IMG/VR virus record: IMGVR_UViG_3300045988_059190
Origin: a virus
Strand: one strand, 5' to 3'
DNA: 56,602 nt
The translations under genes were made by a program, and so were the position numbers. The first letter of the stretch is position 1. Each line of letters starts with the position of its first letter. Below the pieces are notes generated by a model. That model had not been told where the DNA came from, searched no databases, and was given only the letters and a program-made list of their open reading frames with translations. Positions 6,850 through 46,835 of the stretch are shown here, one piece after another.

Positions 6850-7278
6850 ATGGGAGTAACAATAAATAGCAAAAATCACAAAATTGTTCTGAGCTATTCC
6901 GGGTTCTACCGGATTCGTGTAAAAGTAGCGGAGTTAACTGCACCAGATATCTATGAACATTATAAAAAACTTAATGATTGGAGATATGTACTGGTTAGCA
7001 AAGGAGAGAACTTTTCCGCAGAGTATGACAAGAAAATCGTGGAACTTGATAAAAAGTACGATGGAAAATATACACAGATCCTTGAATTCTTATACACGAG
7101 CGACAGTCACGGAGAAGCTGATGCAGAACACTGCAAATCTGTATACGAAATTATAAAAGAATATGATGATGATATTATCTATGGATATCGTAGCAGTATA
7201 GAAGCTGTACTATTCAAAAATTTTAAACAGTTGATAAAAGATGGTGCAGATACAGGAACTGGGATTGAATGGTATTAA
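6850..7278 (+). CDS. hypothetical protein
   Basis: ATG 6850 follows AAGGAAAG. The track ORF begins at TTG 6802. Confidence 0.6.
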   Translation: MGVTINSKNHKIVLSYSGFYRIRVKVAELTAPDIYEHYKKLNDWRYVLVSKGENFSAEYDKKIVELDKKYDGKYTQILEFLYTSDSHGEADAEHCKSVYEIIKEYDDDIIYGYRSSIEAVLFKNFKQLIKDGADTGTGIEWY

Positions 7279-7292
7279 GAAAGGGGGAAATT

Positions 7293-7589
7293 GTGAAAAC
7301 GGTATTTACTATTTGCGTGATTATTATGTTATGTGTCTATATAGCAGTGGAAGAAAGAGAGATAAAAGTAACAAAGGAAGAAGCATATCGGGACGGATTT
7401 CGAAAAGCACTAAAAGAATGTGGAAAACTTCCGACACGACCGATTATCTTGGATGATTCTACGGAAGATATTGATTATAAATGCTCACACTGTGGAAAGG
7501 AATACATAGTGCCGAAAGATAACAAACCGAAATACTGTAGTGAATGCGGAAGAGAGATTGACTGGGAGGACAAAGCCTGTGGGATGTAA
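7293..7589 (+). CDS. membrane-anchored zinc-ribbon protein
   Basis: GTG follows AAGGGGGA. N-terminal hydrophobic helix VFTICVIIMLCVYIAV. Ribbon motif CSHCG..x..CSECG. Confidence 0.55.
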   Translation: MKTVFTICVIIMLCVYIAVEEREIKVTKEEAYRDGFRKALKECGKLPTRPIILDDSTEDIDYKCSHCGKEYIVPKDNKPKYCSECGREIDWEDKACGM

Positions 7590-7746
7590 ACAGATATGTA
7601 GTGTAGACCCAGGCATCCACAAATGCTGTCTGGAATGTGAGAAGTACAAAGAATGTAATATTCTGTGTGACGATTTAGACCAGTATGAATACATGGAAGA
7701 ATGCCCGGATTATGTAAAGGAGGATGAAGACAATGAGAATAATTAG
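7579..7746 (+). CDS. small Cys-rich acidic protein
   Basis: GTG follows GGGAGGA. Sequence is CKQIC..HKCCLECEKYKECNILC followed by an acidic tail. Confidence 0.45.
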   Translation: MGCKQICSVDPGIHKCCLECEKYKECNILCDDLDQYEYMEECPDYVKEDEDNENN

Positions 7747-7984
7747 TCAAGATGGATGTTATGATATGCCTTATGAAGAAGTGGCATTAAAAAGAAATGG
7801 GTGTAATATTTGCGCACTAAATCAGTACTTGTCATCGGGTTTTATTATTGGGCTTGCGGAATATTCTACCGAAGAGAAAGCAATTAAGGCTATGGATATG
7901 TGCAGAAAATATTACGATAACAGATCTTCAATGTTAGAACCTAAAATTTTTCAGTTTCCAAAAGATGAAGGGGTGATATTATGA
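7724..7984 (+). CDS. hypothetical protein
   Basis: 86-aa ORF, translationally coupled to its neighbours. Confidence 0.55.
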   Translation: MKTMRIISQDGCYDMPYEEVALKRNGCNICALNQYLSSGFIIGLAEYSTEEKAIKAMDMCRKYYDNRSSMLEPKIFQFPKDEGVIL

Positions 7985-16944: not shown

Positions 16945-18648
16945 ATGAATACTGTACGTGCAAATATAACGAGTAGCAGATATGCGGAAACAAATAGCAT
17001 TTTCCAATATGATACGGGTAGAAAACTGGAAATATATGGATGCAATCTACCGAAGTCTGTAGAGGTACAATTTTCTACAGACAAAGAAAAAGGAAATACG
17101 ATAACTCGTGTCGGGAACACAAACAATGGTGTCACTACAACAATAATTCCTAATCAGCTTTTAAACGATAGTGAAAAAACAAGCAATTTCTGCATTTTTG
17201 CATTTCTGTATAATGTTGATAACGATGGAGGAAGAACGGAATACGTGATTAAAATACCAGTAGTTGCCCGTCCAAAACCAGAGAATCCATCCGAAGAACC
17301 ATTGCCAGAGCCGAATATATTTCACGAAACTGTAGTAGCAGTAAATGCCAGTGCAGATCGGGCAGAGAAAGCGGCGTCTGATGCAGAAGATATCCGAGAT
17401 AACCTGAATCTTGATTTGTCTGAAAAGATTACTCGTCCTCAGACAGCGGAGGTGGGACAGGTTCTGGCTGTCAAAGAAATTGATGAAAGTGGAAAACCTA
17501 CCGTATTCGAAGCAGAAGATGTCAAAGTACCAACGAAAACTTCTGAATTAGAGAATGACAGCGGATTCCTTACGGAGCATCAGGATATAAGCGGAAAACT
17601 GGACAAGGAGAAACTTCCGGAGGCGATAGATGATGCATTGGCACAGGCGAAAGAAAGTGGGGAGTTTAACGGAAAGGACGGAGCACCTGGAGAAAAAGGT
17701 GAGAAGGGAGATCCTGGAGAAACTACATATGTGGAAAATCCATACGATGATACGGAGATTAAGAAAGAAATCGCTGCTAAGGTAGGGTATTCAGAAGTGG
17801 TAGGCAACCAGTTGTTGATGTATGCAGACGATACGAAGGAAAAGTTGCTGGCAACATTGAAATTGCCGAGTGGCGGAAGTAACTTAGACATCCAGATTAA
17901 CGGACAGAGCATAGTTAGAGATGGGGTTGCGGAGATACCACTAATCAAAGAAAGTAGTCCGGGGTTGGTATCGGTTGATTATTATGCAACAACGGGAGGC
18001 CTTACGAAAGCTAACGAAAAAACTGGTCTTATACGTGTATTTTCAGCGAGAAAAACTGAAATCAATAATCGTTCTAATGATTGTCTTCCGATTACATCAC
18101 CACTTCTCGACTACGCCGTAAAAGCTGCCATGTGTGATGGAAAAGGTGGTGCGTGGACAGCCGAGGAACAAGCGAATGCTAGAGACAGGATTGGAATTGA
18201 TGAGTATGAAGATGTTTTAGACGTGACACTTGAAGAAGATAGCTCATTTTCCGCAGATTTTGAACATGAATACAAACAACTGTATATCTACATTGACCAA
18301 TCAGGAGTTACGGAAAAAATATATGGTGTGATATTTCTGTATCCGTATTCATACGTCGACGGTGAAGGTAAAAAGATAAACACTTTTTGTAGTTATTACC
18401 AGCCTACTTCCAAAGCATATTCTAATGTAGCATCCGTTTGGAAAAGTTATGGAAAAGTTGCTACAAGAATCGCAAGTGTTACTAACGATCAAAAAAATAC
18501 AACAGGCAATCAAACAACTTGTTTAAAAGTTTGGGATACAAGTATGTCTAATATAAATGGAATTGGAGATTCGTTCAAAGGTATCTATCCAAGTACTACT
18601 ATTTTCAAAGCTGGAACCAGACTTGTTGTGAAAGGGGTGAGAGCATGA
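16945..18648 (+). CDS. collagen-like fibre protein with BppU-N-like N-terminus
   Basis: Six G-X-Y triplets, GKDGAPGEKGEKGDPGET. The N-terminal ~60 aa is paralogous to the remnant at 42690..42900. Its position next to the portal gene is atypical. Confidence 0.65.
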   Translation: MNTVRANITSSRYAETNSIFQYDTGRKLEIYGCNLPKSVEVQFSTDKEKGNTITRVGNTNNGVTTTIIPNQLLNDSEKTSNFCIFAFLYNVDNDGGRTEYVIKIPVVARPKPENPSEEPLPEPNIFHETVVAVNASADRAEKAASDAEDIRDNLNLDLSEKITRPQTAEVGQVLAVKEIDESGKPTVFEAEDVKVPTKTSELENDSGFLTEHQDISGKLDKEKLPEAIDDALAQAKESGEFNGKDGAPGEKGEKGDPGETTYVENPYDDTEIKKEIAAKVGYSEVVGNQLLMYADDTKEKLLATLKLPSGGSNLDIQINGQSIVRDGVAEIPLIKESSPGLVSVDYYATTGGLTKANEKTGLIRVFSARKTEINNRSNDCLPITSPLLDYAVKAAMCDGKGGAWTAEEQANARDRIGIDEYEDVLDVTLEEDSSFSADFEHEYKQLYIYIDQSGVTEKIYGVIFLYPYSYVDGEGKKINTFCSYYQPTSKAYSNVASVWKSYGKVATRIASVTNDQKNTTGNQTTCLKVWDTSMSNINGIGDSFKGIYPSTTIFKAGTRLVVKGVRA

Positions 18649-19528: not shown

Positions 19529-19612
19529 ATGGCAACAAGTACGATTAATATTATTGTAATTTGCGTTTTTCTGCTTCTGATAACGAAGATTCCAAACAGA
19601 AAGGATAAATAA
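19529..19612 (+). CDS. 27-aa hydrophobic peptide downstream of holin
   Basis: MATSTINIIVICVFLLLITKIPNRKDK. RBS-like GGAAAGGA. Its stop overlaps the ATG of the next gene. Confidence 0.35.
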   Translation: MATSTINIIVICVFLLLITKIPNRKDK

Positions 19613-20844
19613 TGCTTACGCCGGAATATCTCTTTCATGTGACCGAGGGAGCGGAACAGATAACATCGGATATGCATAAGAACATCATGGACATGATCGT
19701 TGATCGTATAATGGTGCGTATAGGTCGTGGGGAAGATTATCTCCTTACGGCTACGGACAGGTGGCAGATACAGGTGTTACAAGAATCCGGGTACTTACTG
19801 GAAGACATACAAAAAGAGATTGCTGACAAAACGAAGAAGCAAGAGAGCGAGCTTAAAAGCGCATTTGAAGAAGCTGGTATAAAAGCTATCGAGAGAGACG
19901 ATGCGATATATAGGGCGGTAGGACTATCACCTACGCCCTTATTGCAATCTCCGGCATTGCTCAGAATACTGGAAAGAGATTATAACGCTACGTGCGGAGA
20001 ATGGAGAAACCTTACACGAACAACGGCAGATGAAGCACAGAAATTGTTTTTGAAAGAGGTCGACACAGCTTACCGCATGACATCAAGCGGTGCCGTATCA
20101 TATACACAAGCTGTCAGAAATGCTGTTGACAGGATGATAAAGCAAGGCGTTAAAGTATCGTATCCGTCCGGCAGAGAAATGAGCATTGAATCAGCCACAA
20201 TGATGACTGTACGCACAGGGATAAGCCAGTGTTCCGGAGCAATCGCACTAAAGCGAATGGAAGAATTGGGATGGGATACCATCTTAGTATCTGCACATGT
20301 GGGTGCACGAATTGGTGATGGTGGCAACAACCCAACGAACCACTTTTGGTGGCAAGGAAAATTCTATTCCCGGACAGGCAAAGACAAGAGATTCCCGGAC
20401 TTCCGAACATCAACAGGCTACGGAACGGTGACAGGGTTGTGTGGCGTGAACTGCCGACACTCTTTCGGATCCGGTGACGGTGAAAACAATCCGTATGCAG
20501 ATATTAACCTGTCGAGCGAAGACAATATAAAAGCGGAAGAGCGTGCGAAAAAGCAACGGCTTATGGAAAGGCGCATCCGCAACAGCAAGAGAGAGATTCA
20601 GAATTTGCAGACTGCTATAGATGCAAGCGGAGATGACAAGCTTAAATTCGAATTGCAACAGGCATATGACCGAAAATCAGCGGTACTCAGACGGCAGAAT
20701 AAGCAATACCGTGAGTTCTGCAAAGAAAATGGACTTAAAGAATATTCGGAACGTCTACGGGTAGCACAGTGGGATAGGTCGCAGGCTGTGAAGTCTGCAA
20801 AAGCAGCACAAAGATATCTTAATGCGAAAGGTGATGCAAAATGA
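19612..20844 (+). CDS. head morphogenesis protein (SPP1 gp7 / Mu F family)
   Basis: The core motif GLCGVNCRHSF and the long basic coiled-coil C-terminus are typical of the family. Confidence 0.8.
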   Translation: MLTPEYLFHVTEGAEQITSDMHKNIMDMIVDRIMVRIGRGEDYLLTATDRWQIQVLQESGYLLEDIQKEIADKTKKQESELKSAFEEAGIKAIERDDAIYRAVGLSPTPLLQSPALLRILERDYNATCGEWRNLTRTTADEAQKLFLKEVDTAYRMTSSGAVSYTQAVRNAVDRMIKQGVKVSYPSGREMSIESATMMTVRTGISQCSGAIALKRMEELGWDTILVSAHVGARIGDGGNNPTNHFWWQGKFYSRTGKDKRFPDFRTSTGYGTVTGLCGVNCRHSFGSGDGENNPYADINLSSEDNIKAEERAKKQRLMERRIRNSKREIQNLQTAIDASGDDKLKFELQQAYDRKSAVLRRQNKQYREFCKENGLKEYSERLRVAQWDRSQAVKSAKAAQRYLNAKGDAK

Positions 20845-21116: not shown

Positions 21117-21476
21117 ATGGAACTAATAACACAGATACTTGCTATATGCGGTGCTATATCTGTTATCGGTGGTGCTGTTGCGGTGCTTTCCGGGTGGTAC
21201 AAATCATGGAAAGCACCAAAAGAAAAACAGGATAACCGCATAGAACAGATTGAAAAGCGAATAACGAACATTGAAACATCTATCACAGGGATTAATCAGA
21301 AACTTGATAACGATTATAAGAACATAAGGAATACGAGGGATGATATGAATCTATTAATGAGAAGTATGTTTAATTTGATTGAAAACAAAATCACAGGGAA
21401 TAACATTGAGGGTTTAAAAAAAACTCGGGAAGAGCTTGTAAATGCTATGACGGACAAGAAACCAAAGGAATTATGA
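21117..21476 (+). CDS. membrane-anchored coiled-coil protein
   Basis: N-terminal TM segment ILAICGAISVIGGAVAVLSGW. Confidence 0.5.
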   Translation: MELITQILAICGAISVIGGAVAVLSGWYKSWKAPKEKQDNRIEQIEKRITNIETSITGINQKLDNDYKNIRNTRDDMNLLMRSMFNLIENKITGNNIEGLKKTREELVNAMTDKKPKEL

Positions 21477-22479: not shown

Positions 22480-22505
22480 TTATATGATTGAAAGGGGATA
22501 AAGAT

Positions 22506-23132
22506 ATGAACTTCGGAGAAGCCATAAAATGTATGAAAAATGGAAAGAAAGTTACACGTAATGTATGGAAAGAAAACTTTTTTAATGGGAGAAAACAGTT
22601 TATTTTTATTGGAAGAAACAAAGGTTTAACGACAAAAACGTTTCTTTCACTTCCACCAGAAGATGAACAATTCTCGGACTGCATTATGGGTTACACACGA
22701 AAAGGAAGCTTTCAGCCAAACTGGACACCAGCGCAAGAAGATATGCTTGCTGAGGATTGGGAAATGTATCCGGCAGAGGAAACGGTAGTCGATGAAACGC
22801 CGAACATGACGGCAGATGAAATGATTGATCTCAAAAACCGTATTGGGTGGAATATTAAATTTTATTCTACCGGGGAAACAATTATTTCTGAGCACATGGA
22901 CTATCAAAAACTCTTAACCGTGGCAGAAAGTACATATATGCTGTCGTTTGTTGTCCCTGAAAAAAGCCTTTATGGTTTGTCAATGACAAATAAATGCCAA
23001 AATGTTATTGTTTCTGGACTTTTATTCAAAGTATATGCTTCTAGGAATATTGCTGACGATAGCCTTTGGCTCGTGACTGAAAGTGCCTTATCTGAAAAAG
23101 AATTTCACACAATTATAAGATTGGAGAGGTGA
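22506..23132 (+). CDS. DUF2829 (Tad2-like) domain protein with unknown C-terminal extension
   Basis: MNFGEAIKCMKNGKKVTRNVW ... PNWTPAQEDMLAEDWEMY matches the start and end signatures of DUF2829. About 120 further residues are unassigned. RBS is GAAAGGGGA. Confidence 0.7.
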   Translation: MNFGEAIKCMKNGKKVTRNVWKENFFNGRKQFIFIGRNKGLTTKTFLSLPPEDEQFSDCIMGYTRKGSFQPNWTPAQEDMLAEDWEMYPAEETVVDETPNMTADEMIDLKNRIGWNIKFYSTGETIISEHMDYQKLLTVAESTYMLSFVVPEKSLYGLSMTNKCQNVIVSGLLFKVYASRNIADDSLWLVTESALSEKEFHTIIRLER

Positions 23133-24099: not shown

Positions 24100-24134
24100 A
24101 GAGACTTTAACGAACTGTTAAGGTCTCTTTTTTA
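24100..24134 (+). terminator. intrinsic terminator
   Basis: 12-bp stem AGAGACTTTAAC / GTTAAGGTCTCT with one G-T pair, followed by T6. Confidence 0.75.
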
Positions 24135-24189
24135 TGCGTAAAATGAAAGCATAGAGAACAACAAATGCTAATTTACAGGAGGTATGAGT

Positions 24190-24615
24190 ATGAATCCATA
24201 TATGTCATATACACCGTACATGCCACAGGATGCTTATATGCAAGACCAGATGGCATTACGACAACGGATAGACAACTTATCACAGGCTCAACAGCAATAC
24301 AAGACACAGCCACAGCCGAATGTGAACTGGATACAGGTAGCCGGAATTGACGGGGCAAGAAATCAGATTGTACAGCCGGGAACAACGGCTTGGATGATGG
24401 ATAACAATGCGCCATACTTTTATGTTAAATCTGTTGACGGCGTGGGAAGTGTTACGTTTAAAGCTTTTGAATTCCATGAGGTACAGGCGAACAATCCACA
24501 ACCTGTAGTGGAAAATATGGACGCTAAGTACGTGACAAGAGAAGAATTCAACAAATTACTGGATACATTGAAAACTCAACCGGAAGAACAGAAAGGGGAG
24601 ATGACACATGAGTAA
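24190..24615 (+). CDS. orphan protein with Y/M/Q/P-rich N-terminus
   Basis: AGGAGG RBS. MNPYMSYTPYMPQDAYMQDQ..QAQQQYKTQPQPN, then a globular part NWIQVAGIDGARNQIVQPGTTAWMMDNNAPYFYVK. Confidence 0.6.
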   Translation: MNPYMSYTPYMPQDAYMQDQMALRQRIDNLSQAQQQYKTQPQPNVNWIQVAGIDGARNQIVQPGTTAWMMDNNAPYFYVKSVDGVGSVTFKAFEFHEVQANNPQPVVENMDAKYVTREEFNKLLDTLKTQPEEQKGEMTHE

Positions 24616-24862
24616 TCCATTAATGGGAATGATGGGCGGTATGCCGGGTGGCAACAGTCCATTCGGAATGATTCAAAGAATGATGGGGATGGTGCAGAGT
24701 ACACAGAACCCCGGAGCAATGTTACAGAATATGGCGCAGAGCAACCCGAACATCAAAAAGGCTATGGATATGTGCCAAGGAAGAAACCCGAAAGATGTAT
24801 TTATGGAGATGTGCCAGCGAAATGGCATGAATCCAAACGACATTATAAATAAAATAAAGTGA
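24608..24862 (+). CDS. orphan Met/Gly/Asn/Pro-rich low-complexity protein
   Basis: 84 aa: GMMGGMPGGNSPFGMIQRMMGM..QNPGAMLQNMAQSNPNIKK..GRNPKD..GMNPNDI. Confidence 0.55.
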   Translation: MSNPLMGMMGGMPGGNSPFGMIQRMMGMVQSTQNPGAMLQNMAQSNPNIKKAMDMCQGRNPKDVFMEMCQRNGMNPNDIINKIK

Positions 24863-24914
24863 TATCCGGACGGAGTGCACACGTCTTGATAAATAAAAGA
24901 AAAGGAGAACCAAC

Positions 24915-25583
24915 ATGAACGAGGGATTAAACACACTTAGTGCTGCCGATGTAGCAGCAGTCACAAGAAACAACGATGGAAACATGTGGGGTGACGGTGG
25001 ATGGTTCTGGATCATTATTCTTGCTTTCCTGTTTTGCGGTAACGGATGGGGAAACAACAACGGAGCACAGGACGCTTTTATCTCTGACGAATTTGTGAAA
25101 AGAGATATCTTTAATACAAATCAGAATGTGTCTAACACAGCTTGTGAGACACAGAGAGACGTATTAGAGAACCGCTATAACACACAGCTCGGCTTGCAGA
25201 ACTTACAGGCTCAGCAGTCTCAGTGTTGCTGCAACACACAGAAAGAGATCTTACAGAGTAGATATGATGCGGCATTACAGGCACAGAACATGCAAGCACA
25301 GATGGCTCAGTGTTGCTGTGATATCGAAGAAAAAATCCTGGCAGATGGACAGGCTACACGCCAGTTAATCCAGGATAACACGATTCAGAACTTGAGAGAT
25401 AAGCTTGCTGATCGTGACAGAGATTTGCAGACAGCATACTGGCAGATCTCACAGGTATCACAGACCAATAACATTATTGATGCAGTGAGACCGACACCAA
25501 AACCGGCTTATATGTCTTGCAGTCCATACTTTGCGTATAACGCATTTGGCAATGGTTGCTGTGCAAGTGGGAATGTGATGTAA
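24915..25583 (+). CDS. orphan membrane-anchored Q-rich protein with CCC triplets
   Basis: Hydrophobic segment GGWFWIIILAFLFCGNGWG. Two repeat units, QAQQSQCCCNTQKEILQSRYD and QAQMAQCCCDIEEKILADGQ. C-terminus is GNGCCASGN. Confidence 0.6.
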   Translation: MNEGLNTLSAADVAAVTRNNDGNMWGDGGWFWIIILAFLFCGNGWGNNNGAQDAFISDEFVKRDIFNTNQNVSNTACETQRDVLENRYNTQLGLQNLQAQQSQCCCNTQKEILQSRYDAALQAQNMQAQMAQCCCDIEEKILADGQATRQLIQDNTIQNLRDKLADRDRDLQTAYWQISQVSQTNNIIDAVRPTPKPAYMSCSPYFAYNAFGNGCCASGNVM

Positions 25584-25790
25584 GTGAACGATATATCACT
25601 ACTTGACTTTCTGACAGTGTACGGAGTTGCTTTACAGATTGCGAATTTTAACAGTGATCTATCACAGGCGAGTAATTCTGACATTGAAAAACACTTGCAC
25701 GAGCAAGACAGTAAGTACTTTTTAAAAATAATTGAAAACCAAAACAAAATCATAAGCATGTTGGAAGAATCCATATCTACAAAAAAGTAG
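25584..25790 (+). CDS. hypothetical protein
   Basis: GTG start abuts the upstream stop. 68 aa. Followed by a terminator. Confidence 0.45.
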   Translation: MNDISLLDFLTVYGVALQIANFNSDLSQASNSDIEKHLHEQDSKYFLKIIENQNKIISMLEESISTKK

Positions 25791-25805
25791 TCTTGCGAAG
25801 ATTAA

Positions 25806-25836
25806 AGAGAGTAGGCATGCGCTTGCTCTCTTTTTT
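25806..25836 (+). terminator. intrinsic terminator
   Basis: Stem AGAGAGTAGGC / GCTTGCTCTCT, loop ATGC, then T6. Confidence 0.7.
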
Positions 25837-25853
25837 AAGAAAGGAGAAAAAAT

Positions 25854-26282
25854 ATGTTAAATTCTATTGCTAAAAATGCTCAGACAGTAGCAACAAATCA
25901 GAATGTATTATTTACAGAAACAAGAGTGAAAAGCCGTAGATGTGCTTGTAACACAGGATGGCTTGCACATGACAACGGCAGTGGACTTTTTGAAATCACA
26001 AACCGTGGAAATCTGCCAATGGCGGTCGAAGTTGAGTTTAACGGAAACGTTACGGCATCTGCAATAGGAGCGGTAGCGTTATCTATCAAACAGAACGGGG
26101 AACCGGTTTCTGGTACGGAAATGGACTATACAGTAGCAACGGCAAATGTGTATCAGAATGTCGGTGCAGCTACATTGATTGCAGTTCCGGCTGGAAGTAG
26201 TGCCACTATATCGGTTGGCAACGTTGGCACAGTTGACACATTGGTTAAGGATGCGAATATCATCATCAAAAAGCTCTCATAG
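25854..26282 (+). CDS. orphan all-beta protein, BclA-C-terminal/C1q-like pattern
   Basis: The alternating strand pattern GLFEITNRGNLPMAVEVEF..ALSIKQNGEPVSG..ATLIAVPAGSSATISVGN..DANIIIKKL resembles BclA_C jelly-roll domains. The call is weak and made by eye. Confidence 0.55.
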   Translation: MLNSIAKNAQTVATNQNVLFTETRVKSRRCACNTGWLAHDNGSGLFEITNRGNLPMAVEVEFNGNVTASAIGAVALSIKQNGEPVSGTEMDYTVATANVYQNVGAATLIAVPAGSSATISVGNVGTVDTLVKDANIIIKKLS

Positions 26283-26299
26283 AAAAGGGGTGAGTTTCT

Positions 26300-26890
26300 A
26301 TGATTGATTTTAAAAGCAACCTAGATGTTAAAACTCCGAAAGAAATCTTTGCCGGAATTAATGAACGGTTTATCGGAGCGGTCATGATGCACGGACAGTT
26401 TGCGGACTACTTCGATTTCCTTGGCTTAAAAGGCTTTAAGCGGATGCATGAGTACCAGCACATTGAGGAAAGCTTGGAACGTAGGAAAGTGTGCCGATAT
26501 TTTATAAACCATCACAATCAGCTTATTGATGATGCATTTGAGGGAAAAGTGAATGTTATCCCGGATGCGTGGCGAACGGCCAAACGGTTAAGCGTTGGAA
26601 AAAGTACAAAGCAGAAAGCCGTAGAAGATGGATTTGTTGAGTACCACAATTGGGAATCCGAAACAAAGGAAGTGTACGAACAGTACGCACACACGCTAAG
26701 AGAAAACGGTCATGTGGCTGATGCTATGTTCGTGGAATGTTTGGTAGAAGATGTAAGCGAAGAATTAAAAACTGTAGAATGTATGATTAACGACCTCATA
26801 TCTGCCGGATACGACATGGTATACATCACAGAAATTCAGTCGGAGATTCACGACAAATACAAAAAGAAAATGAAAGGAATCGAGGTGTAA
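26300..26890 (+). CDS. orphan helical protein, ferritin-like four-helix pattern
   Basis: GAVMMHGQFADYFDFLGLKGFKRMHEYQHIEESLERRK and MFVECLVEDVSEELKTVECMINDL resemble ferritin A/B and D helices. Metal ligands are incomplete. Confidence 0.5.
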   Translation: MIDFKSNLDVKTPKEIFAGINERFIGAVMMHGQFADYFDFLGLKGFKRMHEYQHIEESLERRKVCRYFINHHNQLIDDAFEGKVNVIPDAWRTAKRLSVGKSTKQKAVEDGFVEYHNWESETKEVYEQYAHTLRENGHVADAMFVECLVEDVSEELKTVECMINDLISAGYDMVYITEIQSEIHDKYKKKMKGIEV

Positions 26891-26893
26891 TAA

Positions 26894-27316
26894 ATGAGCG
26901 AGATCAAAAAGATTTTGGAAGAACAGCTTGAACGTGAGAAAGCATCTGCAAAGAAAGACTTAAATATGTCTAACTTACAGGCAATGTACATGATTACATC
27001 TACATTGTGCAATATGAAATCTTTGGAATGTGAAAGCGTACCGGGGATGATTGCGGATGCATCGGAAAACCTTATCAAGAAATACAGTAACGGAAAGTAC
27101 GACAAAAACATTGATGCGCTATACGACCAGTACATTATGGCGAAAGAGATGTATCAACAGAACGGAGATCAAGCGCACAGAGACAAACTGATGGAAAGTG
27201 TCGGGAAACTTATGGTAGAAGTTTACGACATGCTTTCCTCTATGGTGATGGATTCAGATTTTGCGGAAGAACGGAAAGAGATTCAAAGGCAAATCAAGAA
27301 GCTTGCGGAAATGTAA
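26894..27316 (+). CDS. orphan helical protein
   Basis: 140-aa ORF closely spaced after the previous gene (3-nt gap). Confidence 0.55.
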   Translation: MSEIKKILEEQLEREKASAKKDLNMSNLQAMYMITSTLCNMKSLECESVPGMIADASENLIKKYSNGKYDKNIDALYDQYIMAKEMYQQNGDQAHRDKLMESVGKLMVEVYDMLSSMVMDSDFAEERKEIQRQIKKLAEM

Positions 27317-27696: not shown

Positions 27697-27786
27697 CGGG
27701 ATATAGTTCAATGGTAGAACGCAGATGTTTCCTCTTTCGTTACATAATAGCATCTGAGACATGTGGTTCGAATCCGCAGAACCCGA
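27697..27786 (+). tRNA. tRNA-like element / aberrant tRNA with expanded anticodon loop
   Basis: D arm GTTC-AATGGTA-GAAC and T arm TGTGG-TTCGAAT-CCGCA are canonical. The acceptor pairs at only 5 of 7 positions. The anticodon stem CAGATG/CATCTG closes 23 nt instead of 7. No CCA is encoded. Confidence 0.35.
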
Positions 27787-27867
27787 TTACCCCGGCAGAG
27801 GTTCATCTGTCTGAATCCCTACCGCAGACGAAGCGGTTAATAAATGACGTTGAGGAGGATATGCAAC

Positions 27868-28476
27868 ATGAAAAATATTATTCAGATTATCAAAGATTCT
27901 GGTCTTGAAATTACAGATGAGCAGAAAAAGACAATCGAAGATGCAGTGAAAGAGAATTACAAAAGCGTATCTGACTATGAAAAGCAGACACGAAAAGTAG
28001 AAACTCTGACACAGGAACGTGACAACTTTAAAACGCAGTATGAAACAGCGAAAGAGACTTTGGACGGGTTCGAGGGAAAAGACTTCGATGCGATCACAAG
28101 AGAACGTGATGAGTGGAAGACGAAAGCCGAGAACGCAGAAAAAGAATGGAAAGACAAGCTTGATGCCAGTGAAAAAGAGTACAACCAGAAGATTGAAGAA
28201 AGAGACTTCAACGATGTTCTGAAAAAAGCTCTTGCGGGCGAGAAATTCAGTTCTGATTTTGCAAAAACAGGAATCATCAACATGATTAAAGACAAGGGCC
28301 TGAAACGTGAGGGTGAAAAGATTCTCGGTCTTGATGATTACATGAAAGAGCTGAAAGAATCTCAGAAAGATGCTTTCGTGACGGATGGTAAGACACCGCC
28401 AGTATTCACTACACCTACAGAAAAAGGCAGAAGTGAACAGAAAGCAGAGCCGTTTGTTCCTGGAACTGTTTGGTAA
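27868..28476 (+). CDS. scaffolding protein (GP20-like)
   Basis: GAGGAGG RBS. K/E-rich coiled coil ending in GLDDYMKELKESQKDAFV. Lies immediately upstream of the capsid gene. Confidence 0.75.
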   Translation: MKNIIQIIKDSGLEITDEQKKTIEDAVKENYKSVSDYEKQTRKVETLTQERDNFKTQYETAKETLDGFEGKDFDAITRERDEWKTKAENAEKEWKDKLDASEKEYNQKIEERDFNDVLKKALAGEKFSSDFAKTGIINMIKDKGLKREGEKILGLDDYMKELKESQKDAFVTDGKTPPVFTTPTEKGRSEQKAEPFVPGTVW

Positions 28477-39716: not shown

Positions 39717-42401
39717 ATGGCAGATGTATATATAGAAGAATTAAATAAAGCAGATAGTCTTTCGGATGACGATGTTGTCTTGCTCCACACCAAAACGGAA
39801 GATTTGCAACTAACTATCGGAATGCTGAAAGCATTAATGATAGTAGAAAAAGCCATAAAGCTTGCTACTCCGTTTTCGGTATCTATAACAGGAGATGCGA
39901 TCGGGAATGGAAATACAGATGGCAGAGAGATTCTCTCGATTGAATTATCGAACATAAAAGCTTCAAGGTTGAAGAATAGCATTAAAATTAATGGAACGAA
40001 TTTCGACGGAACAGAGGGAATTACTACAGAACGATGGGGAGCAGAAAGAACTGTAACGATCGGTGGATGTAAAAGGAAAGTAAACGGAGAAACAGATGTT
40101 AACTTTCCGGCAAATGAAGTTTTCTCCGGATCCGGACAACCTTATGTCCCGACAGCCGGAGGGGTTATGACGGGCAACCTAAAAAGGGAAATAAACGAAA
40201 CAAGTTATAATTTGTTTGAAGCAACTACAGAAAACGAAGAATCCGGCGTTTCTGTAAAATTAAAATTTGGTGATATTAATGCAAACGCTATTATCCAAAG
40301 TCTTTCACAACCTTATTGGCATAATGGAGTAAATTTAAAAAAATTACTTACAGGAGATGATATCTATGAGCTTGAACGACGAACTTCAGAACTCGAAAGT
40401 ATGGCTACACAAACATTTAAAAATCCGTATAAAAACAAGACAATTGTAGCATTTGGCGATAGTATCATTGCTGGCTGGGGATGGAAAGAGGGAACAGGAA
40501 TCATCCAGCCATTAAAAGAAAAGTATCCGGATGCTACGTGGATCAACAAGGCGGAATCCGGGGCGAATATGGCAGTGACATCCAATCCGTCACATACACC
40601 AATTGTTAACCAGATTACATCATATACCGGTGCTGCGGATGCGATAATTTTCGACGGTGGAGTTAATGATATCAATAACAGCATCCCGGTCGGCTCTATC
40701 GAATCCGGATATGATGCATCATATAACACAAGTACATTCTGCGGTGCATTGGAAAGATCATTGCAATACATCATGGACAGGTATCCTCTGGCGGTTAAAT
40801 TATATATTATTCCACACAGCTTCGCAAAAGACAACTCTTACGTGGACAGCATCTATTCAAAAGCAATTGAAATCTGTGATAAATGGAATACGCCATACCT
40901 TGATATGAGAAAATACTCACAGATCGCCATGACTTCTGCCAATAAGGAAGCATACACCTATAATCCGAGAAGCAAGAAAGGTGACGGTGTGCACCCGAAC
41001 GAAACCTGGTATCGTACATTCTACTGTCCGGTAATCGACCAGGCATTACAGTATCAGGGCATTGGCTCTATTACAGCGTCCGAAGCACCAGAGGTCGTAG
41101 CGGTTACAGGAGTTAAACTCGACCAGACAACACTGACGCTGAATGCCGGAGAATCTGCACAGATTACAGCTACGGTATCACCAAGCAATGCGACCAATAA
41201 GTCGGTTACATGGAGTGCCAACAACAGCAATGTATCTGTATCTGGTGGAAAGGTCACAGCCAAGACAGTCGGATTAGCAGTCGTAACGGTAACTACCGCA
41301 GATGGTGGATACACAGCACAGTGTAATGTTAATGTTAAGCAGACGGAAACAGAGGTTGTGTCAGATGAAATTATTATGCCAGATATGTATAACACAGGCG
41401 TTGAAAATAGTATTCAATTGAAAGAAATAAACACTTCTTCTCTTTCAGGTGCCACACGATTACAGATGACACAGCAAATGGCTGATAATTTCTGTAGTTC
41501 AGATGGAATTATTAGCAATTATCATTTTAACGGAATATATGTTGATTTTAACAAATCAATTACGCAAACTGTTACTTTTAAAAATTGCAAATTCACCGGT
41601 GATGATAATATAGCTTACGCTGTTGTAGTTAGCACGTATGGAGTTGATAAAGGAATAAGCTTTGAAAATTGTGAATTTTCTCATTATAAATCTGCTGTCT
41701 CGTCAGGTACATGGAAAGCTACATTTAACAAGTGCTATGTGCATAATATGATGCAAGACGCATTTAAGATTAATCATTCTGACATTTATCTTAAAAATAG
41801 TTATATTCACTCGTTAGGAATAGATACAACCTCCCACGCCGACGGAGTGCAGATTGAAAATAATACTACAGAAGTAACTGTGCATATATATAATTGCAGA
41901 TTTGATCAGCCTTACACATCTGGCAATACAGAAAATGCGGCTATTTTCGCAAAGTGCAAAAATGCAAATATAATTTTAGACGTTCAAAAATGTTATGCAA
42001 CAGGTGGGAATTATACTATCTATGCTTTGGACAGTGATACTGCAAAAGCGTCTGGAAAAGTAGAGTGTGTAGTTGGTTGTAGTAGCCGATATGGAATCGC
42101 AAATATAGCAGATGGCGTTGAACAAAATGTTGTATCTGCTGATAGCTTGCTAGTGAGCACTGTTCAAAACAGTAAATTATATGTAACAAATTACACGAAT
42201 AAAGAAAGAACATTGAAAATAGTTACAGATATCGAAGAAAAGACCATAACTATTCCAAAATCACCTACTTACGATGAAAATCACACACAAGAGTTTTCAG
42301 TATATCCATATAATGTTGCCGTAGAATATTCGATGGAAGCGAAATGGGTAAAATGTTACGAGAATGAAAATCTTATAAGAACACAGAAATTAGAAAAATA
42401 G
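39717..42401 (+). CDS. tail spike: SGNH esterase + Big_2 + beta-helix domains
   Basis: SGNH blocks VAFGDSIIAGWG, GGVNDI, DGVHPNE. Big_2 is VTGVKLDQTTLTLNAGESAQITATVSP..VTWS. C-terminal repeats NCKFTG/NCEFS/NKCYVH suggest a parallel beta-helix. Confidence 0.8.
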   Translation: MADVYIEELNKADSLSDDDVVLLHTKTEDLQLTIGMLKALMIVEKAIKLATPFSVSITGDAIGNGNTDGREILSIELSNIKASRLKNSIKINGTNFDGTEGITTERWGAERTVTIGGCKRKVNGETDVNFPANEVFSGSGQPYVPTAGGVMTGNLKREINETSYNLFEATTENEESGVSVKLKFGDINANAIIQSLSQPYWHNGVNLKKLLTGDDIYELERRTSELESMATQTFKNPYKNKTIVAFGDSIIAGWGWKEGTGIIQPLKEKYPDATWINKAESGANMAVTSNPSHTPIVNQITSYTGAADAIIFDGGVNDINNSIPVGSIESGYDASYNTSTFCGALERSLQYIMDRYPLAVKLYIIPHSFAKDNSYVDSIYSKAIEICDKWNTPYLDMRKYSQIAMTSANKEAYTYNPRSKKGDGVHPNETWYRTFYCPVIDQALQYQGIGSITASEAPEVVAVTGVKLDQTTLTLNAGESAQITATVSPSNATNKSVTWSANNSNVSVSGGKVTAKTVGLAVVTVTTADGGYTAQCNVNVKQTETEVVSDEIIMPDMYNTGVENSIQLKEINTSSLSGATRLQMTQQMADNFCSSDGIISNYHFNGIYVDFNKSITQTVTFKNCKFTGDDNIAYAVVVSTYGVDKGISFENCEFSHYKSAVSSGTWKATFNKCYVHNMMQDAFKINHSDIYLKNSYIHSLGIDTTSHADGVQIENNTTEVTVHIYNCRFDQPYTSGNTENAAIFAKCKNANIILDVQKCYATGGNYTIYALDSDTAKASGKVECVVGCSSRYGIANIADGVEQNVVSADSLLVSTVQNSKLYVTNYTNKERTLKIVTDIEEKTITIPKSPTYDENHTQEFSVYPYNVAVEYSMEAKWVKCYENENLIRTQKLEK

Positions 42402-43785: not shown

Positions 43786-43962
43786 ATGAGCGAAGAAACC
43801 ATTTGCGAAGTAGTCAAAAGCTGTGCCTACGACTACACGGTAGACGAATTGGCAGAACACTACGGCATGGAAAAAGCAGATGCAGAAAAGTTTGTGAAAG
43901 ATCATGCATCAGAGATTACAGAAACGAAAGAGCACTTAAAACAGGAGGGGTATATTGAATAG
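43786..43962 (+). CDS. small acidic protein (58 aa), no TM segment
   Basis: Overlaps the endolysin start by 8 nt. It is not holin-like. Confidence 0.4.
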   Translation: MSEETICEVVKSCAYDYTVDELAEHYGMEKADAEKFVKDHASEITETKEHLKQEGYIE

Positions 43963-44944
43963 GGTAGTCGATGTTTCTGAGCATAACGGAAACATCGACT
44001 GGGCGAAAGTAAAAGCATCCGGCATTGTAGGAGCTATCATCAGATGCGGATATGGACAAGATCAGACCGGACAGGATGATAAAAAATGGCTGAGAAATGT
44101 ATCTGAATGTGAACGTCTTGGCATCCCTTACGGTGTGTATCTGTATTCTTACGCAAAGACTACAGGTGCGGTACGGGGAGAAATCAACCACGCATTAAGA
44201 CTTCTAAAAGGACATTCTCCGGCATGGCCTGTATATTTTGACAGCGAACAGCCGGGAACACAGGGCGTTGCAAAAGCCAATGCAAAAGCATTTTGTGACG
44301 CAATGGTGGCACATGGCTATAAAGCCGGAATCTATGCATCTACATCTTGGTACAAGAACTATATCGGTCAGACATGGGGATATTCTCTGTGGATTGCATC
44401 TTACGGCTCTAAATCTGCCGGAGTAGACGGAATCGACATGTGGCAGTACACATCAAAATGCTCTATTCCTGGAATCCCTGGAAATGTAGATGTGAACTAT
44501 GTTTATAAGGACTTTGGCGGTACGGTAACTCCAGTACAGAAACCGACTGCATCACCGGCACCTAAACCGGTAGATGAATCTTGGAAAGGTGACAAGCGGT
44601 ATTATCTTAACAATTCCCGTGTTGGAGAATGGCAGAAAGCCATGAACAAAGGGTTTGATACCAACGCACTGTCTGTTGATGACAAATTCGGTGTCGGCTC
44701 ACAGAATTTTGCTAAAACGCATATCTTGTGGTCCGGCCAGACACACAACTGTATCACGGCTATCAGATGGCTGAGACGCACCCTCAGAGACGTATATGGC
44801 TTTACGAAGCTGTCTTACGATGGTGGATGGACAGACTACCTTGGGAAGTGTGTAGAAGTATTCCAGAGGAACAGAGGACTTACACCGGATAGAAAAGTAG
44901 GACTTGACACAACCTACTGGCTATTATTGGGTGTTGTAAAATAG
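43955..44944 (+). CDS. endolysin: GH25 muramidase + peptidoglycan-binding domain
   Basis: VVDVSEHNGNIDWAKVKASGIVGAIIRCGYG..GVYLYSYA, a P/K-rich linker, and C-terminal ..FQRNRGLTPDRKVGLDT. TTG start follows AGGAGGGG. Confidence 0.9.
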   Translation: MNRVVDVSEHNGNIDWAKVKASGIVGAIIRCGYGQDQTGQDDKKWLRNVSECERLGIPYGVYLYSYAKTTGAVRGEINHALRLLKGHSPAWPVYFDSEQPGTQGVAKANAKAFCDAMVAHGYKAGIYASTSWYKNYIGQTWGYSLWIASYGSKSAGVDGIDMWQYTSKCSIPGIPGNVDVNYVYKDFGGTVTPVQKPTASPAPKPVDESWKGDKRYYLNNSRVGEWQKAMNKGFDTNALSVDDKFGVGSQNFAKTHILWSGQTHNCITAIRWLRRTLRDVYGFTKLSYDGGWTDYLGKCVEVFQRNRGLTPDRKVGLDTTYWLLLGVVK

Positions 44945-46100: not shown

Positions 46101-46835
46101 CTATCTTCTTAATACCGCAATCACAACTCCAAACCTTACCCATTGTTCCATGTCTTCAAAACTATTCGGATCAACTTCTATGACATCACCGAAGCCGTTG
46201 ATCGGGACTAACTTTGTCTTACTTCTCTGTACATACCGCCTTATATACGCACGTCCTGTTTCTTTGTGTATAATAATCACGGTATCACCGTTTCTTGGTA
46301 CTCTTTTGGATATGCAAATGATATCACCATTTACATATACAGGGAGCAAGTGGTTGCTCGTTATCTTTATACCACAATGTAACGTCTCACCGTACTTTTT
46401 TATGTATTCCGGGCAGTATATCCGTTCTTCGTGTGAGGAATCCAATATCATACCGTCAGCCATCTCACCAGTGGGGCATAGAACATCCAACATGTTTTCT
46501 GGATCCGTTTCCGACACTTTCATAGAGATTTCATAATCCATCTTGCCAAGAATATACGCACGTTGTCTGTCAGTCAATTGCCTGTACTTTCCCAATACCT
46601 CGTATTCCTTTGAAGAACACCCTAAGAGATCAGGGATAGGTTTATGCGTTAGCTGTGACAACCTTAGTGCTAAGAAAACGTCAAGATTATTAGTCTTCCG
46701 TGAAACAATGTTTTTGTATGTGGACACAGATACACCCAGCATCTTAGAAAAGAGAACTTGCGTAATATCAAGGTTTTTCCGCTCTTCTTCGATGTTATGT
46801 GCAAAGTTATCCAACATTTCGTTTTTCGTTAGCAT
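46101..46835 (-). CDS. CI-like repressor: XRE HTH + S24/LexA-like C-terminal domain
   Basis: HTH is LDITQVLFSKMLGVSVSTYKNIVS. C-terminal beta-domain is NGDIICISKRVPRNGDTVIIIHKETGRAYIRRY. The canonical Ser/Lys dyad is not obvious. Confidence 0.75.
   Translation of the reverse strand: MLTKNEMLDNFAHNIEEERKNLDITQVLFSKMLGVSVSTYKNIVSRKTNNLDVFLALRLSQLTHKPIPDLLGCSSKEYEVLGKYRQLTDRQRAYILGKMDYEISMKVSETDPENMLDVLCPTGEMADGMILDSSHEERIYCPEYIKKYGETLHCGIKITSNHLLPVYVNGDIICISKRVPRNGDTVIIIHKETGRAYIRRYVQRSKTKLVPINGFGDVIEVDPNSFEDMEQWVRFGVVIAVLRR

Follow-up and report, generated by a model that had tools for sequence, protein, structure and literature searches.

Comparison With Described Systems

In temperate phages of Gram-positive bacteria, the junction between the lysin and integrase genes is the usual site of lysogenic-conversion genes. 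Phage genes of this type, or morons, include gp15 of HK97. Other described systems that bear on the present work are the i-spanins (lambda Rz, P2 LysB), the prokaryotic 24-mer ferritins (Ftn; Mycobacterium tuberculosis BfrB) and several spore-surface proteins. Trimers of ExsF and of the C-terminal domain of BclA anchor or tip the fibres of Bacillus spores (PMC12357932; PMC7333573), and CsxA and ExsY are self-assembling spore proteins that are cross-linked by disulfides (PMC7333573). The subject of this work is a cassette of seven genes, p1 to p7, located at positions 24135-27316 of the IMG/VR virus record IMGVR_UViG_3300045988_059190, a stretch of 56,602 nucleotides (nt) that is referred to as the window.

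The cassette is best read as an accessory operon of the moron or lysogenic-conversion type that is autonomous and moves horizontally, and not as a part of capsid assembly. Judged from the sequences, the genes form a conserved set with putative transcription signals of its own, which moves between phages and can be lost. As with morons, the cassette is self-contained between conserved phage genes, is preceded by a terminator and a promoter-like element, is usually found at the lysin-integrase junction, is polymorphic in its presence and encodes a predicted membrane protein, p3. It differs from them in consisting of five to seven translationally coupled genes instead of one, in being retained in about 90% of the clade and in occurring also in apparently virulent phages. 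The reading as a whole, namely an accessory operon that acts in the cell and builds a membrane-anchored complex, is tentative, and a probability of roughly 0.45 was assigned to it.

The other described systems share single traits with the cassette. The high cysteine content of p3, which suggests disulfide cross-linking, and its pairing with a BclA-type knob protein recall ExsY/CotY, CsxA and CdeC/CdeM (PMC7333573). By contrast, no sequence similarity between these proteins and p3 was detected in Pfam, PDB and NCBIfam searches, p3 has a transmembrane-like anchor and a Q-rich helical region, and its family reaches phages of non-sporulating Bacteroidota. p3 resembles the i-spanins in its hydrophobic anchor at the N-terminus, in the conserved cysteines of its helical region and in often lying near lysis genes, whereas most of the p3 carriers found appear to infect Gram-positive hosts, no lipoprotein partner is found, a terminator splits the cassette from the lysis genes and the crAss-like phage cr125_1 has a separate LysB-like gene. 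The folds of p5 (BclA_C/C1q) and p6 (ferritin) and the moron architecture are known already, while the operon itself is a system without a known counterpart. This possibility had been raised in the preliminary description of the locus and fits the results, since the operon and the p3 family are undescribed in Pfam, NCBIfam, PHROG annotations, PADLOC and the literature searched. Literature searches on phage BclA_C, DUF7841, phage ferritin with exosporium and the virion proteomics of Clostridium perfringens phages found nothing on the cassette genes.

Organization and Transcription Signals of the Cassette

The seven co-directional open reading frames (ORFs) announced in the preliminary description were confirmed on the + strand. 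Its statements on the composition of p1, p2 and p3 agreed with the translations, and both of its terminator hairpins, one upstream and one internal, were recovered when the folds were compared with shuffled sequence. The elements of the cassette are the following:

24100..24134, + strand, intrinsic terminator with a hairpin of 12-13 bp and a T-run (terminator scan and folding)
24134..24160, + strand, promoter-like motif ATGCGTAAAAT-N6-GCATAGAGAACA, a TRTG/extended -10-like element with a conserved start region behind it
24190..24615 (alternative ATG at 24184), + strand, p1, phrog_21718 of unknown function (ORF list)
24608..24862, + strand, p2, a Met/Gln/Asn/Pro-rich protein of 84 amino acids (aa) whose start overlaps the p1 stop
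24915..25583, + strand, p3, the signature protein (ORF list, profiles, phrog_16490)
25584..25790, + strand, p4, 68 aa, with a GTG start directly after the p3 stop codon
~25804-25839 (hairpin ~25804-25833), + strand, internal hairpin and T-run between p4 and p5 (folding)
25854..26282, + strand, p5, a stand-alone BclA-C/ExsF/C1q-TNF-like jelly roll (Pfam, AlphaFold2, Foldseek, profile)
26300..26890, + strand, p6, a ferritin-fold protein (AlphaFold2, Foldseek, profile; phrog_17879)
26894..27316, + strand, p7, a helical protein of 140 aa (ORF list)

The upstream hairpin (24100-24128) has a folding energy of -15 kcal/mol (z -4.7 against shuffled sequence), and a hairpin with a T-run was also found upstream of p1 in 15 of 20 other lineages. 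The terminator at this site shields the cassette from transcription arriving from upstream. The internal hairpin, which was overlooked by the terminator scan, reached -18.4 kcal/mol (z -3.6). Because it is kept in all of the ten lineages compared (10/10) although the sequences of the stems differ, its structure is under selection, and it may serve as an attenuating terminator or as an RNA-stability element. A conserved motif, GTAGTCTTGC, lies right after the p4 stop and before this hairpin (window 25790-25803) in nearly all of ten lineages examined.

The motif ATGCGTAAAAT-N6-GCATAGAGAACA has a single occurrence in the window and is conserved 5' of p1 both in phages of Lachnospiraceae and in HMD-PC1, which infects C. 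perfringens. It is thus common to the window and to a C. perfringens phage, although the identity between the cassette proteins of the two is no more than about 22-38%. Several lineages have a TGnTAnnAT-like element behind the upstream hairpin and its T-run. The putative promoter is of the extended -10 kind and failed the two-hexamer criteria of the promoter scan. A sporulation-sigma promoter was considered as well. Promoters of sigma-E and sigma-K have a CATA-type -10 and an ATA or AC -35 (PMC3789822), and this candidate was rejected, since the GCATAGAGAACA/GTATAGAAAACA element does not follow that pattern, the C of the element varies and, in some relatives, a ribosome-binding site comes directly after it. 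The upstream signal resembles a vegetative extended -10 promoter rather than a CATA-type mother-cell -10.

Conservation of the Operon Across Phage Lineages

The expectation that the seven genes co-occur as a unit in relatives was borne out by a survey of two sets of loci, which are designated here by L numbers. The first set contained 159 loci long enough to hold all seven genes; p1 to p7 were present, in order, in 159/159, including some loci with an unrecognisable major capsid protein and a scaffold protein only 30-43% identical. The second set comprised 80 loci from 20 p3 lineages, in which gene order and strand were invariant. p3 was present in 80/80 of these loci, preceded by p1 in 77/80, and p2 was located between both genes in 72/80. 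Directly 3' of p3, a beta protein was encoded in 76/80 loci, BclA_C-like in 32 of them and of an unrelated CxxC type (type B) in the remaining 44, whereas p6 was found in 27/80 and a DUF7841 protein in 39/80. The type B proteins were also considered as divergent BclA_C proteins, and no detectable relation was found. The core operon can therefore be written as p1-p2-p3-small beta protein-(p4)-(ferritin-like p6 or DUF7841); its order and strand are unchanged across more than 20 phage lineages, and p6 is missing from many cassette versions.

A seven-gene array of similar gene sizes was also found in the C. perfringens phages HMD-PC1, vB_CpeS-17DYC, PMQ04, CPD1 and XP41-N3, placed between the antirepressor gene and the Gam/recombinase genes. 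It contains homologues of p1, p2, p3, p4 and p6, and the PHROG families of p1, p3 and p6 are shared with the window. On a smaller scale, L052/L139 (~7267-7950) show a mosaic breakpoint inside the cassette: p2 to p7 are 95-99% identical to the window, against 68% for p1 and 70% for the minor capsid gene, which points to recombination at the p1/p2 junction.

p3, the Signature Protein

p3 is the best conserved of the seven proteins, with 74-78% identity where the minor capsid protein has about 57%. It has an acidic N-tail and a Gly-flanked, transmembrane-like hydrophobic segment of W, F, I and L. Two CCC triplets lie in the Q-rich helical region (QSQCCCNTQKEIL and MAQCCCDIEEKIL), and the motif NTIQxLRD...RPxPxPAY.xCSPY is followed by a Gly/Cys/Tyr tail, which ends in GNGCCASGN in the window. 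Clustered at 50% identity, the family yields 885 clusters, and at 90% identity at least 6,966; all are labelled hypothetical, and none bears a name or a Pfam domain. No match was obtained in PDB sequence and profile searches with p3.

Homologues of p3 occur in C. perfringens, Bacteroides and crAss-like phages. Full-length homologues of the same architecture were found in the Bacteroides uniformis phage C3_41T2LP and in crAss-like phages, and other annotators have labelled the homologues of these two groups 'viral fiber' or 'spike'. A gene next to p3 in the Bacteroides phage was considered as a p1 homologue and found unsupported, so that the Bacteroidota phages are counted for p3 homology only. 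In distant contigs, p3 and the BclA_C protein are again adjacent.

p5, a Jelly-Roll Protein, and p6, a Ferritin-Fold Protein

The strand pattern of p5 had been likened to BclA-C and C1q, and this assignment was upheld by Foldseek on the AlphaFold2 (AF2) model and by a diverse family profile. p5 itself matches Pfam BclA_C (PF18573) with 25.2 bits (E 1.6e-5), against a gathering score of 38 bits. The AF2 model has a predicted local distance difference test score (pLDDT) of 85.6 and a predicted template modelling score (pTM) of 0.80. The top 15 matches of Foldseek in the PDB were BclA, ExsFA/BxpB and F-BclA (E 4e-6 to 1e-4; template modelling (TM) scores 0.53-0.67), followed by TNF and C1q proteins. 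Within the family, BclA_C was matched (E <= 0.01) by 15 of 20 diverse members, with a best E of 1.5e-11, and some database homologues bear a precomputed PF18573 match or the name 'BclA C-terminal domain-containing protein'. With a profile built from 20 diverse p5 homologues, PDB 9h38, the C-terminal domain of F-BclA, was reached (E 1.6e-6), whereas a profile built from close relatives only gave no PDB match.

With BclA, ExsFA and F-BclA, p5 shares the jelly-roll fold and the size, with TM scores of 0.55-0.67 and 21-22% identity to BclA, and like ExsFA/BxpB it stands alone, has ~140 aa and contains no collagen region. Unlike these proteins of the Bacillus exosporium, p5 is encoded by a phage, has no collagen-like stalk in its translation and always lies one or two genes downstream of the predicted membrane protein p3. 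By analogy with them, p5 is expected to form a trimer.

The ferritin-like character proposed for p6 was likewise supported by Foldseek on the AF2 model and by a sequence profile. The model (pLDDT 84.2) is a four-helix bundle with a short fifth helix (13-40, 44-72, 101-135, 139-169 and 173-192), the top 50 Foldseek matches in the PDB are all ferritins or bacterioferritins, with TM scores up to 0.84, and the profile ranks ferritins first (E 0.026). A weak motif, YFDxxGLKGF, is also shared with ferritins, and phrog_17879 is common to the p6 proteins of the window, C. perfringens and Dulem versions. No ferritin match was returned by a Pfam scan of p6. The more specific proposal of a CotJC or Mn-catalase type was not sustained, as no Mn catalase is among the top 50 folds and Pfam matches to Mn_catalase, CotJA and CotJB are absent at E <= 1.

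The bundle with its short fifth helix is that of the prokaryotic 24-mer ferritins. p6 departs from these at the ferroxidase positions: in HMMER alignments with archaeal ferritins, Glu17, Tyr24, Glu50 and His53 correspond to R23, H31, E57 and E60. An invariant arginine (R23) thus occupies the place of the iron-ligand glutamate of helix A, a histidine stands at the conserved tyrosine and ExxE replaces ExxH. As far as the aligned helices A and B are concerned, p6 lacks the canonical ferroxidase residues.

p1, p2, p4 and p7

p1 has a Y/M/Q/P-rich N-terminus, a Q-rich helix, a small beta domain and a C-terminal helix. An AGGAGG sequence lies 7 nt before the ATG at 24190 and 1 nt before that at 24184, and the former start was preferred because this spacing fits better. 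The 84 residues of p2 include 16 Met, 11 Asn and 10 Gly. p4 consists of a hydrophobic N-terminal helix and a further helical region, and homologues of it were found in a C. perfringens phage (E 4e-7), in Dulem virus 36 and in L165. p7 is confined to the cassette version of the window clade, and its identity with DUF7841 was ruled out (hhalign probability 0.2%).

None of the seven proteins reached the threshold in Pfam and NCBIfam, and all of the PHROG matches were to families of 'unknown function'. For p1, p2, p4 and p7, no relative of known function was detected in Pfam, PHROG and NCBIfam, and PDB searches with p1, p7 and the type B beta protein gave no match. For these seven proteins and their C. 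perfringens phage versions together, the Pfam, PHROG and NCBIfam scans yielded nothing beyond the BclA_C match below threshold and the PHROGs without a known function. A PADLOC scan of p1 to p7 and of their C. perfringens phage versions also returned no significant match. When the translations were read by eye, with no prediction tool, an obvious N-terminal signal peptide was seen in none of the seven proteins.

Genomic Position, Mobility and Dispensability

The window has a genome of the temperate siphovirus type. The phage is considered temperate because a CI-like repressor gene is present (46101-46835, minus strand) and a relative is a prophage, found on a 96-kb contig of Coprococcus comes MSK.16.63. 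Close relatives were found in the hundreds in human-gut viromes, and the names on database homologues are C. comes and Lachnospiraceae. The genes recognised in it include those of the small and large terminase, the portal and minor capsid protein 2. Three landmarks of the window are used below:

19612-20844, minor capsid protein 2
27844-28476, scaffold (PF06810)
43955-44944, GH25 endolysin

The cassette sits between the first two of these genes. The location inside the head module given in the preliminary description needs one qualification: about 3.3 kb of small genes, which vary among near-identical relatives, separate the minor capsid gene from p1. One gene of this variable stretch (22488-23132) is Tad2-like (Thoeris anti-defence 2, PF11195, E 7.7e-17) and is present, absent or divergent across relatives that are otherwise 95-99% identical.

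The cassette belongs to the head operon only in the wider clade of the window, and across lineages it occupies at least five distinct genomic positions. In most lineages its neighbours are the endolysin gene on the upstream side and the integrase or early genes on the downstream side. In six lineages, 0.8-1.7 kb separate it from an upstream lysin gene (Amidase_2, M15 or C39-like), and a reverse-strand tyrosine integrase 210-272 nt downstream of it in four, with an SNF2 helicase or a primase as the next gene in others. The array directly follows the receptor-binding protein gene in Dulem virus 36 and lies among replication genes in L165 and L166; the cassette is located after the major capsid gene in L176 and before a capsid-like gene in L175, and in the Bacteroides phage the p3 homologue is found among early or recombination genes. 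In one further lineage (IMG/VR contigs L184-L210), many assemblies made independently place the cassette some 1 kb from the end of the contig, a sign that the genome may have defined termini beside it.

Dispensability was assessed on a set of relatives retrieved through the minor capsid gene, which avoids ascertainment via the cassette genes. Among the 67 loci with enough downstream DNA, the cassette was present between the minor capsid and scaffold genes in 60 and absent in 7. In five of these seven the two genes are only about 0.5 kb apart, and the other two hold a truncated p1 (L283, 2328-2702; L301, 10867-11094), remnants that look like deletion scars in the sequence. Since 7/67 relatives keep the capsid genes without it, the cassette is not required for these genes to persist.

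Proposed Function and Alternative Explanations

The following mechanism is proposed for an accessory operon that acts in the cell. The host RNA polymerase would transcribe the cassette independently of the late operon, possibly in lysogens too, and the internal hairpin would reduce the expression of p5 to p7 relative to p1 to p4. p3 would enter the cytoplasmic membrane through its N-terminal hydrophobic segment and form a helical, probably trimeric, stalk, whose CCC triplets and Gly/Cys/Tyr tail could permit covalent cross-linking or metal binding. The trimer of p5 might then be a knob or docking platform on this stalk, by analogy with the ExsF and BclA-C trimers of Bacillus exosporium fibres. 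The Met-rich p2 and the small p4 may help to handle the hydrophobic segment of p3, although a chaperone role for p2 is a guess, and p6, as a non-catalytic ferritin-fold protein, or DUF7841 would be an interchangeable cytoplasmic partner. As no obvious signal peptide was seen in the partners, the complex would most simply be located on the cytoplasmic face of the membrane. In an infected or lysogenic cell, it may change the envelope; exclusion of other phages and remodelling of the surface are two possible examples.

Several observations weigh against this proposal. The promoter, the membrane insertion of p3 and any contact between p3 and p5 are all inferred. The hydrophobic core of p3 is short (~12-18 residues; mean hydropathy 1.58 over 17) and its flanks have no clear positive charge, and the C-terminal tail of p3 showed no co-variation, taken as a proxy for docking, with the kind of beta protein encoded. 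The terminator scan of the window found no terminator 3' of p7, so that read-through into the scaffold and capsid genes may lead to late co-expression. Retention in about 90% of relatives, together with the unusual conservation of p3, is atypical for morons, and p3 or the whole cassette is also found in virulent-looking phages (crAss-like phages and some of those of C. perfringens). Finally, PADLOC lends no support to a role in defence.

The cassette could instead serve the virion, an option already named in the preliminary description. In this case p3 and p5 would be the stalk and knob of a disulfide-hardened head or neck fibre or decoration, p1, p2 and p4 would be assembly chaperones, and expression would be late, along with the structural genes. 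Its place between minor capsid protein 2 and scaffold in the window clade, with no terminator detected after p7, would agree with this, as would its location after the major capsid gene (L176), after the receptor-binding protein gene (Dulem virus 36) and beside virion structural genes (cr125_1). Phage fibres typically have trimeric jelly-roll knobs and coiled-coil stalks, the 'viral fiber' and 'spike' labels of p3 homologues point the same way, and the lack of obvious signal peptides by eye is also compatible with it. However, most lineages place the operon downstream of the endolysin, behind its own terminator and by integrase or early genes, and it is found among early or recombination genes in the C. 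perfringens phages, L165, L166 and the Bacteroides phage. In addition, the relatives without the cassette keep the same flanking minor capsid and scaffold genes, and among decoration proteins a transmembrane-like segment or a ferritin fold would be unusual; a virion role is therefore unlikely. A role in lysis or egress, in which membrane-anchored p3 and its partners would act in lysis timing, membrane disruption or wall release, is quite unlikely. It draws on the spanin-like make-up of p3 and on gene positions: 0.8-1.7 kb after the lysin in six lineages, just before it in L238, after a holin and the LysB-like gene in cr125_1, after holin/GH25 genes in L175, convergent with lysis genes in L166 and some 3 kb past the amidase and holin genes in phages of C. 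perfringens. Against it stand the terminator between the cassette and the lysis genes, the distance of 17 kb to the GH25 lysin in the window, the Gram-positive hosts without an outer membrane, the absence of an o-spanin partner and the LysB-like protein that cr125_1 already has; a jelly-roll knob and a ferritin-fold protein would also be unprecedented in lysis.

The preliminary description had seen in these proteins a palette resembling spore-surface components, and a lysogen might accordingly express the cassette during sporulation, with p3, p5 and p6 entering the coat or exosporium and altering the properties of the spore. The best structural matches of p5 (Bacillus exosporium BclA, ExsFA/BxpB and F-BclA), the Cys/Gly/Tyr-rich character that p3 shares with CsxA and ExsY (PMC7333573), known hosts among the Clostridia (Coprococcus comes, other Lachnospiraceae and C. 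perfringens) and a moron architecture in temperate phages are all in line with such a function. Nevertheless, phages of hosts that do not sporulate, namely Bacteroides and crAss-like phages, have p3 homologues of the same architecture, the upstream motif is vegetative-like and lacks the sigma-E/sigma-K elements described above, p5 and p6 are often replaced by unrelated proteins (the type B beta protein and DUF7841), and the Pfam scan gave no CotJ, Mn_catalase or CotZ family match. The cassette is not demonstrably a spore module, and remodelling of the spore surface is very unlikely. A related idea, a kit for a covalently cross-linked, exosporium-like fibre or layer on lysogenic gut anaerobes or their spores, built from a p3 lattice or stalk, a knob and a ferritin-fold cage, is about as doubtful as a role in lysis; if true, temperate phages would reshape the surface, transmission or oxygen survival of their hosts through a previously unknown class of lysogenic conversion. 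The least probable of the explanations is a role of ferritin-fold p6 and Cys-cluster p3 in the sequestration of iron or other metals or in the buffering of oxidants, in an anaerobic host. The fifth helix of p6, typical of 24-mer cages, the CCC and GCGC motifs of metallothionein type in p3 and the fact that all carriers are phages of gut or faecal anaerobes would suit it, but the ferroxidase ligands of p6 are replaced in the aligned helices A and B, with an invariant Arg in place of a Glu, p6 is absent from most cassette versions and is swapped for DUF7841, and no significant metal-related family match was obtained.

Genetically, the cassette bears the marks of a cargo system directed at the host and not at the particle. 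The finding is real and broader than the preliminary description could see. The p3-centred operon is among the commoner unannotated gene sets of gut phages; it recurs in dozens of lineages infecting Clostridia, and p3 alone reaches Bacteroides and crAss-like phages. Solving its function would annotate thousands of unannotated genes of the gut virome and would explain the recruitment by phages of Bacillus spore-surface folds and of a ferritin fold without canonical ferroxidase residues in helices A and B. It may also uncover a new route by which temperate phages alter the envelope, phage susceptibility or persistence of dominant gut anaerobes. Cultured carriers are available in the prophage of Coprococcus comes MSK.16.63 and in the C. 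perfringens phages HMD-PC1 and vB_CpeS-17DYC.

Adjacent RNA Region and Other Genes of the Window

A joint action of the cassette and the RNA region next to it had been suggested, and the comparison with relatives speaks against such a functional link. Relatives have transfer RNAs (tRNAs), RAGATH-21 and GP20-b, a known leader of the scaffold gene, in the interval between p7 and that gene (e.g., L080, 10513-10607; L063, 10710-10772), and an Rfam search of four distant cassette-bearing loci gave no RNA match. The window itself has a tRNA-like element at 27697-27786 (Rfam tRNA, 37 bits) with an insert of 23 nt in the anticodon loop, for which ARAGORN made no call. The crAss-like phage cr125_1 (L173) shows many in-frame stops under the standard code, which is consistent with stop-codon reassignment.

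The 'collagen-like fibre' noted at 16945, which had been joined to the spore-surface comparison, has only about six GXY triplets (GKDGAPGEKGEKGDPGET). The ORF at this site (16945-18648) encodes 567 aa, and its N-terminus matches phrog_16164, of unknown function. A small ORF at 21117-21476, distant from the GH25 endolysin, has weak matches (E ~8e-4) to XhlA (haemolysin/lysis-associated) and to the DUF7365 coiled coil. In the tail region, a protein of 894 aa (39717-42401) combines GDSL lipase/acylhydrolase and Big_2 domains and is probably a receptor-modifying esterase.

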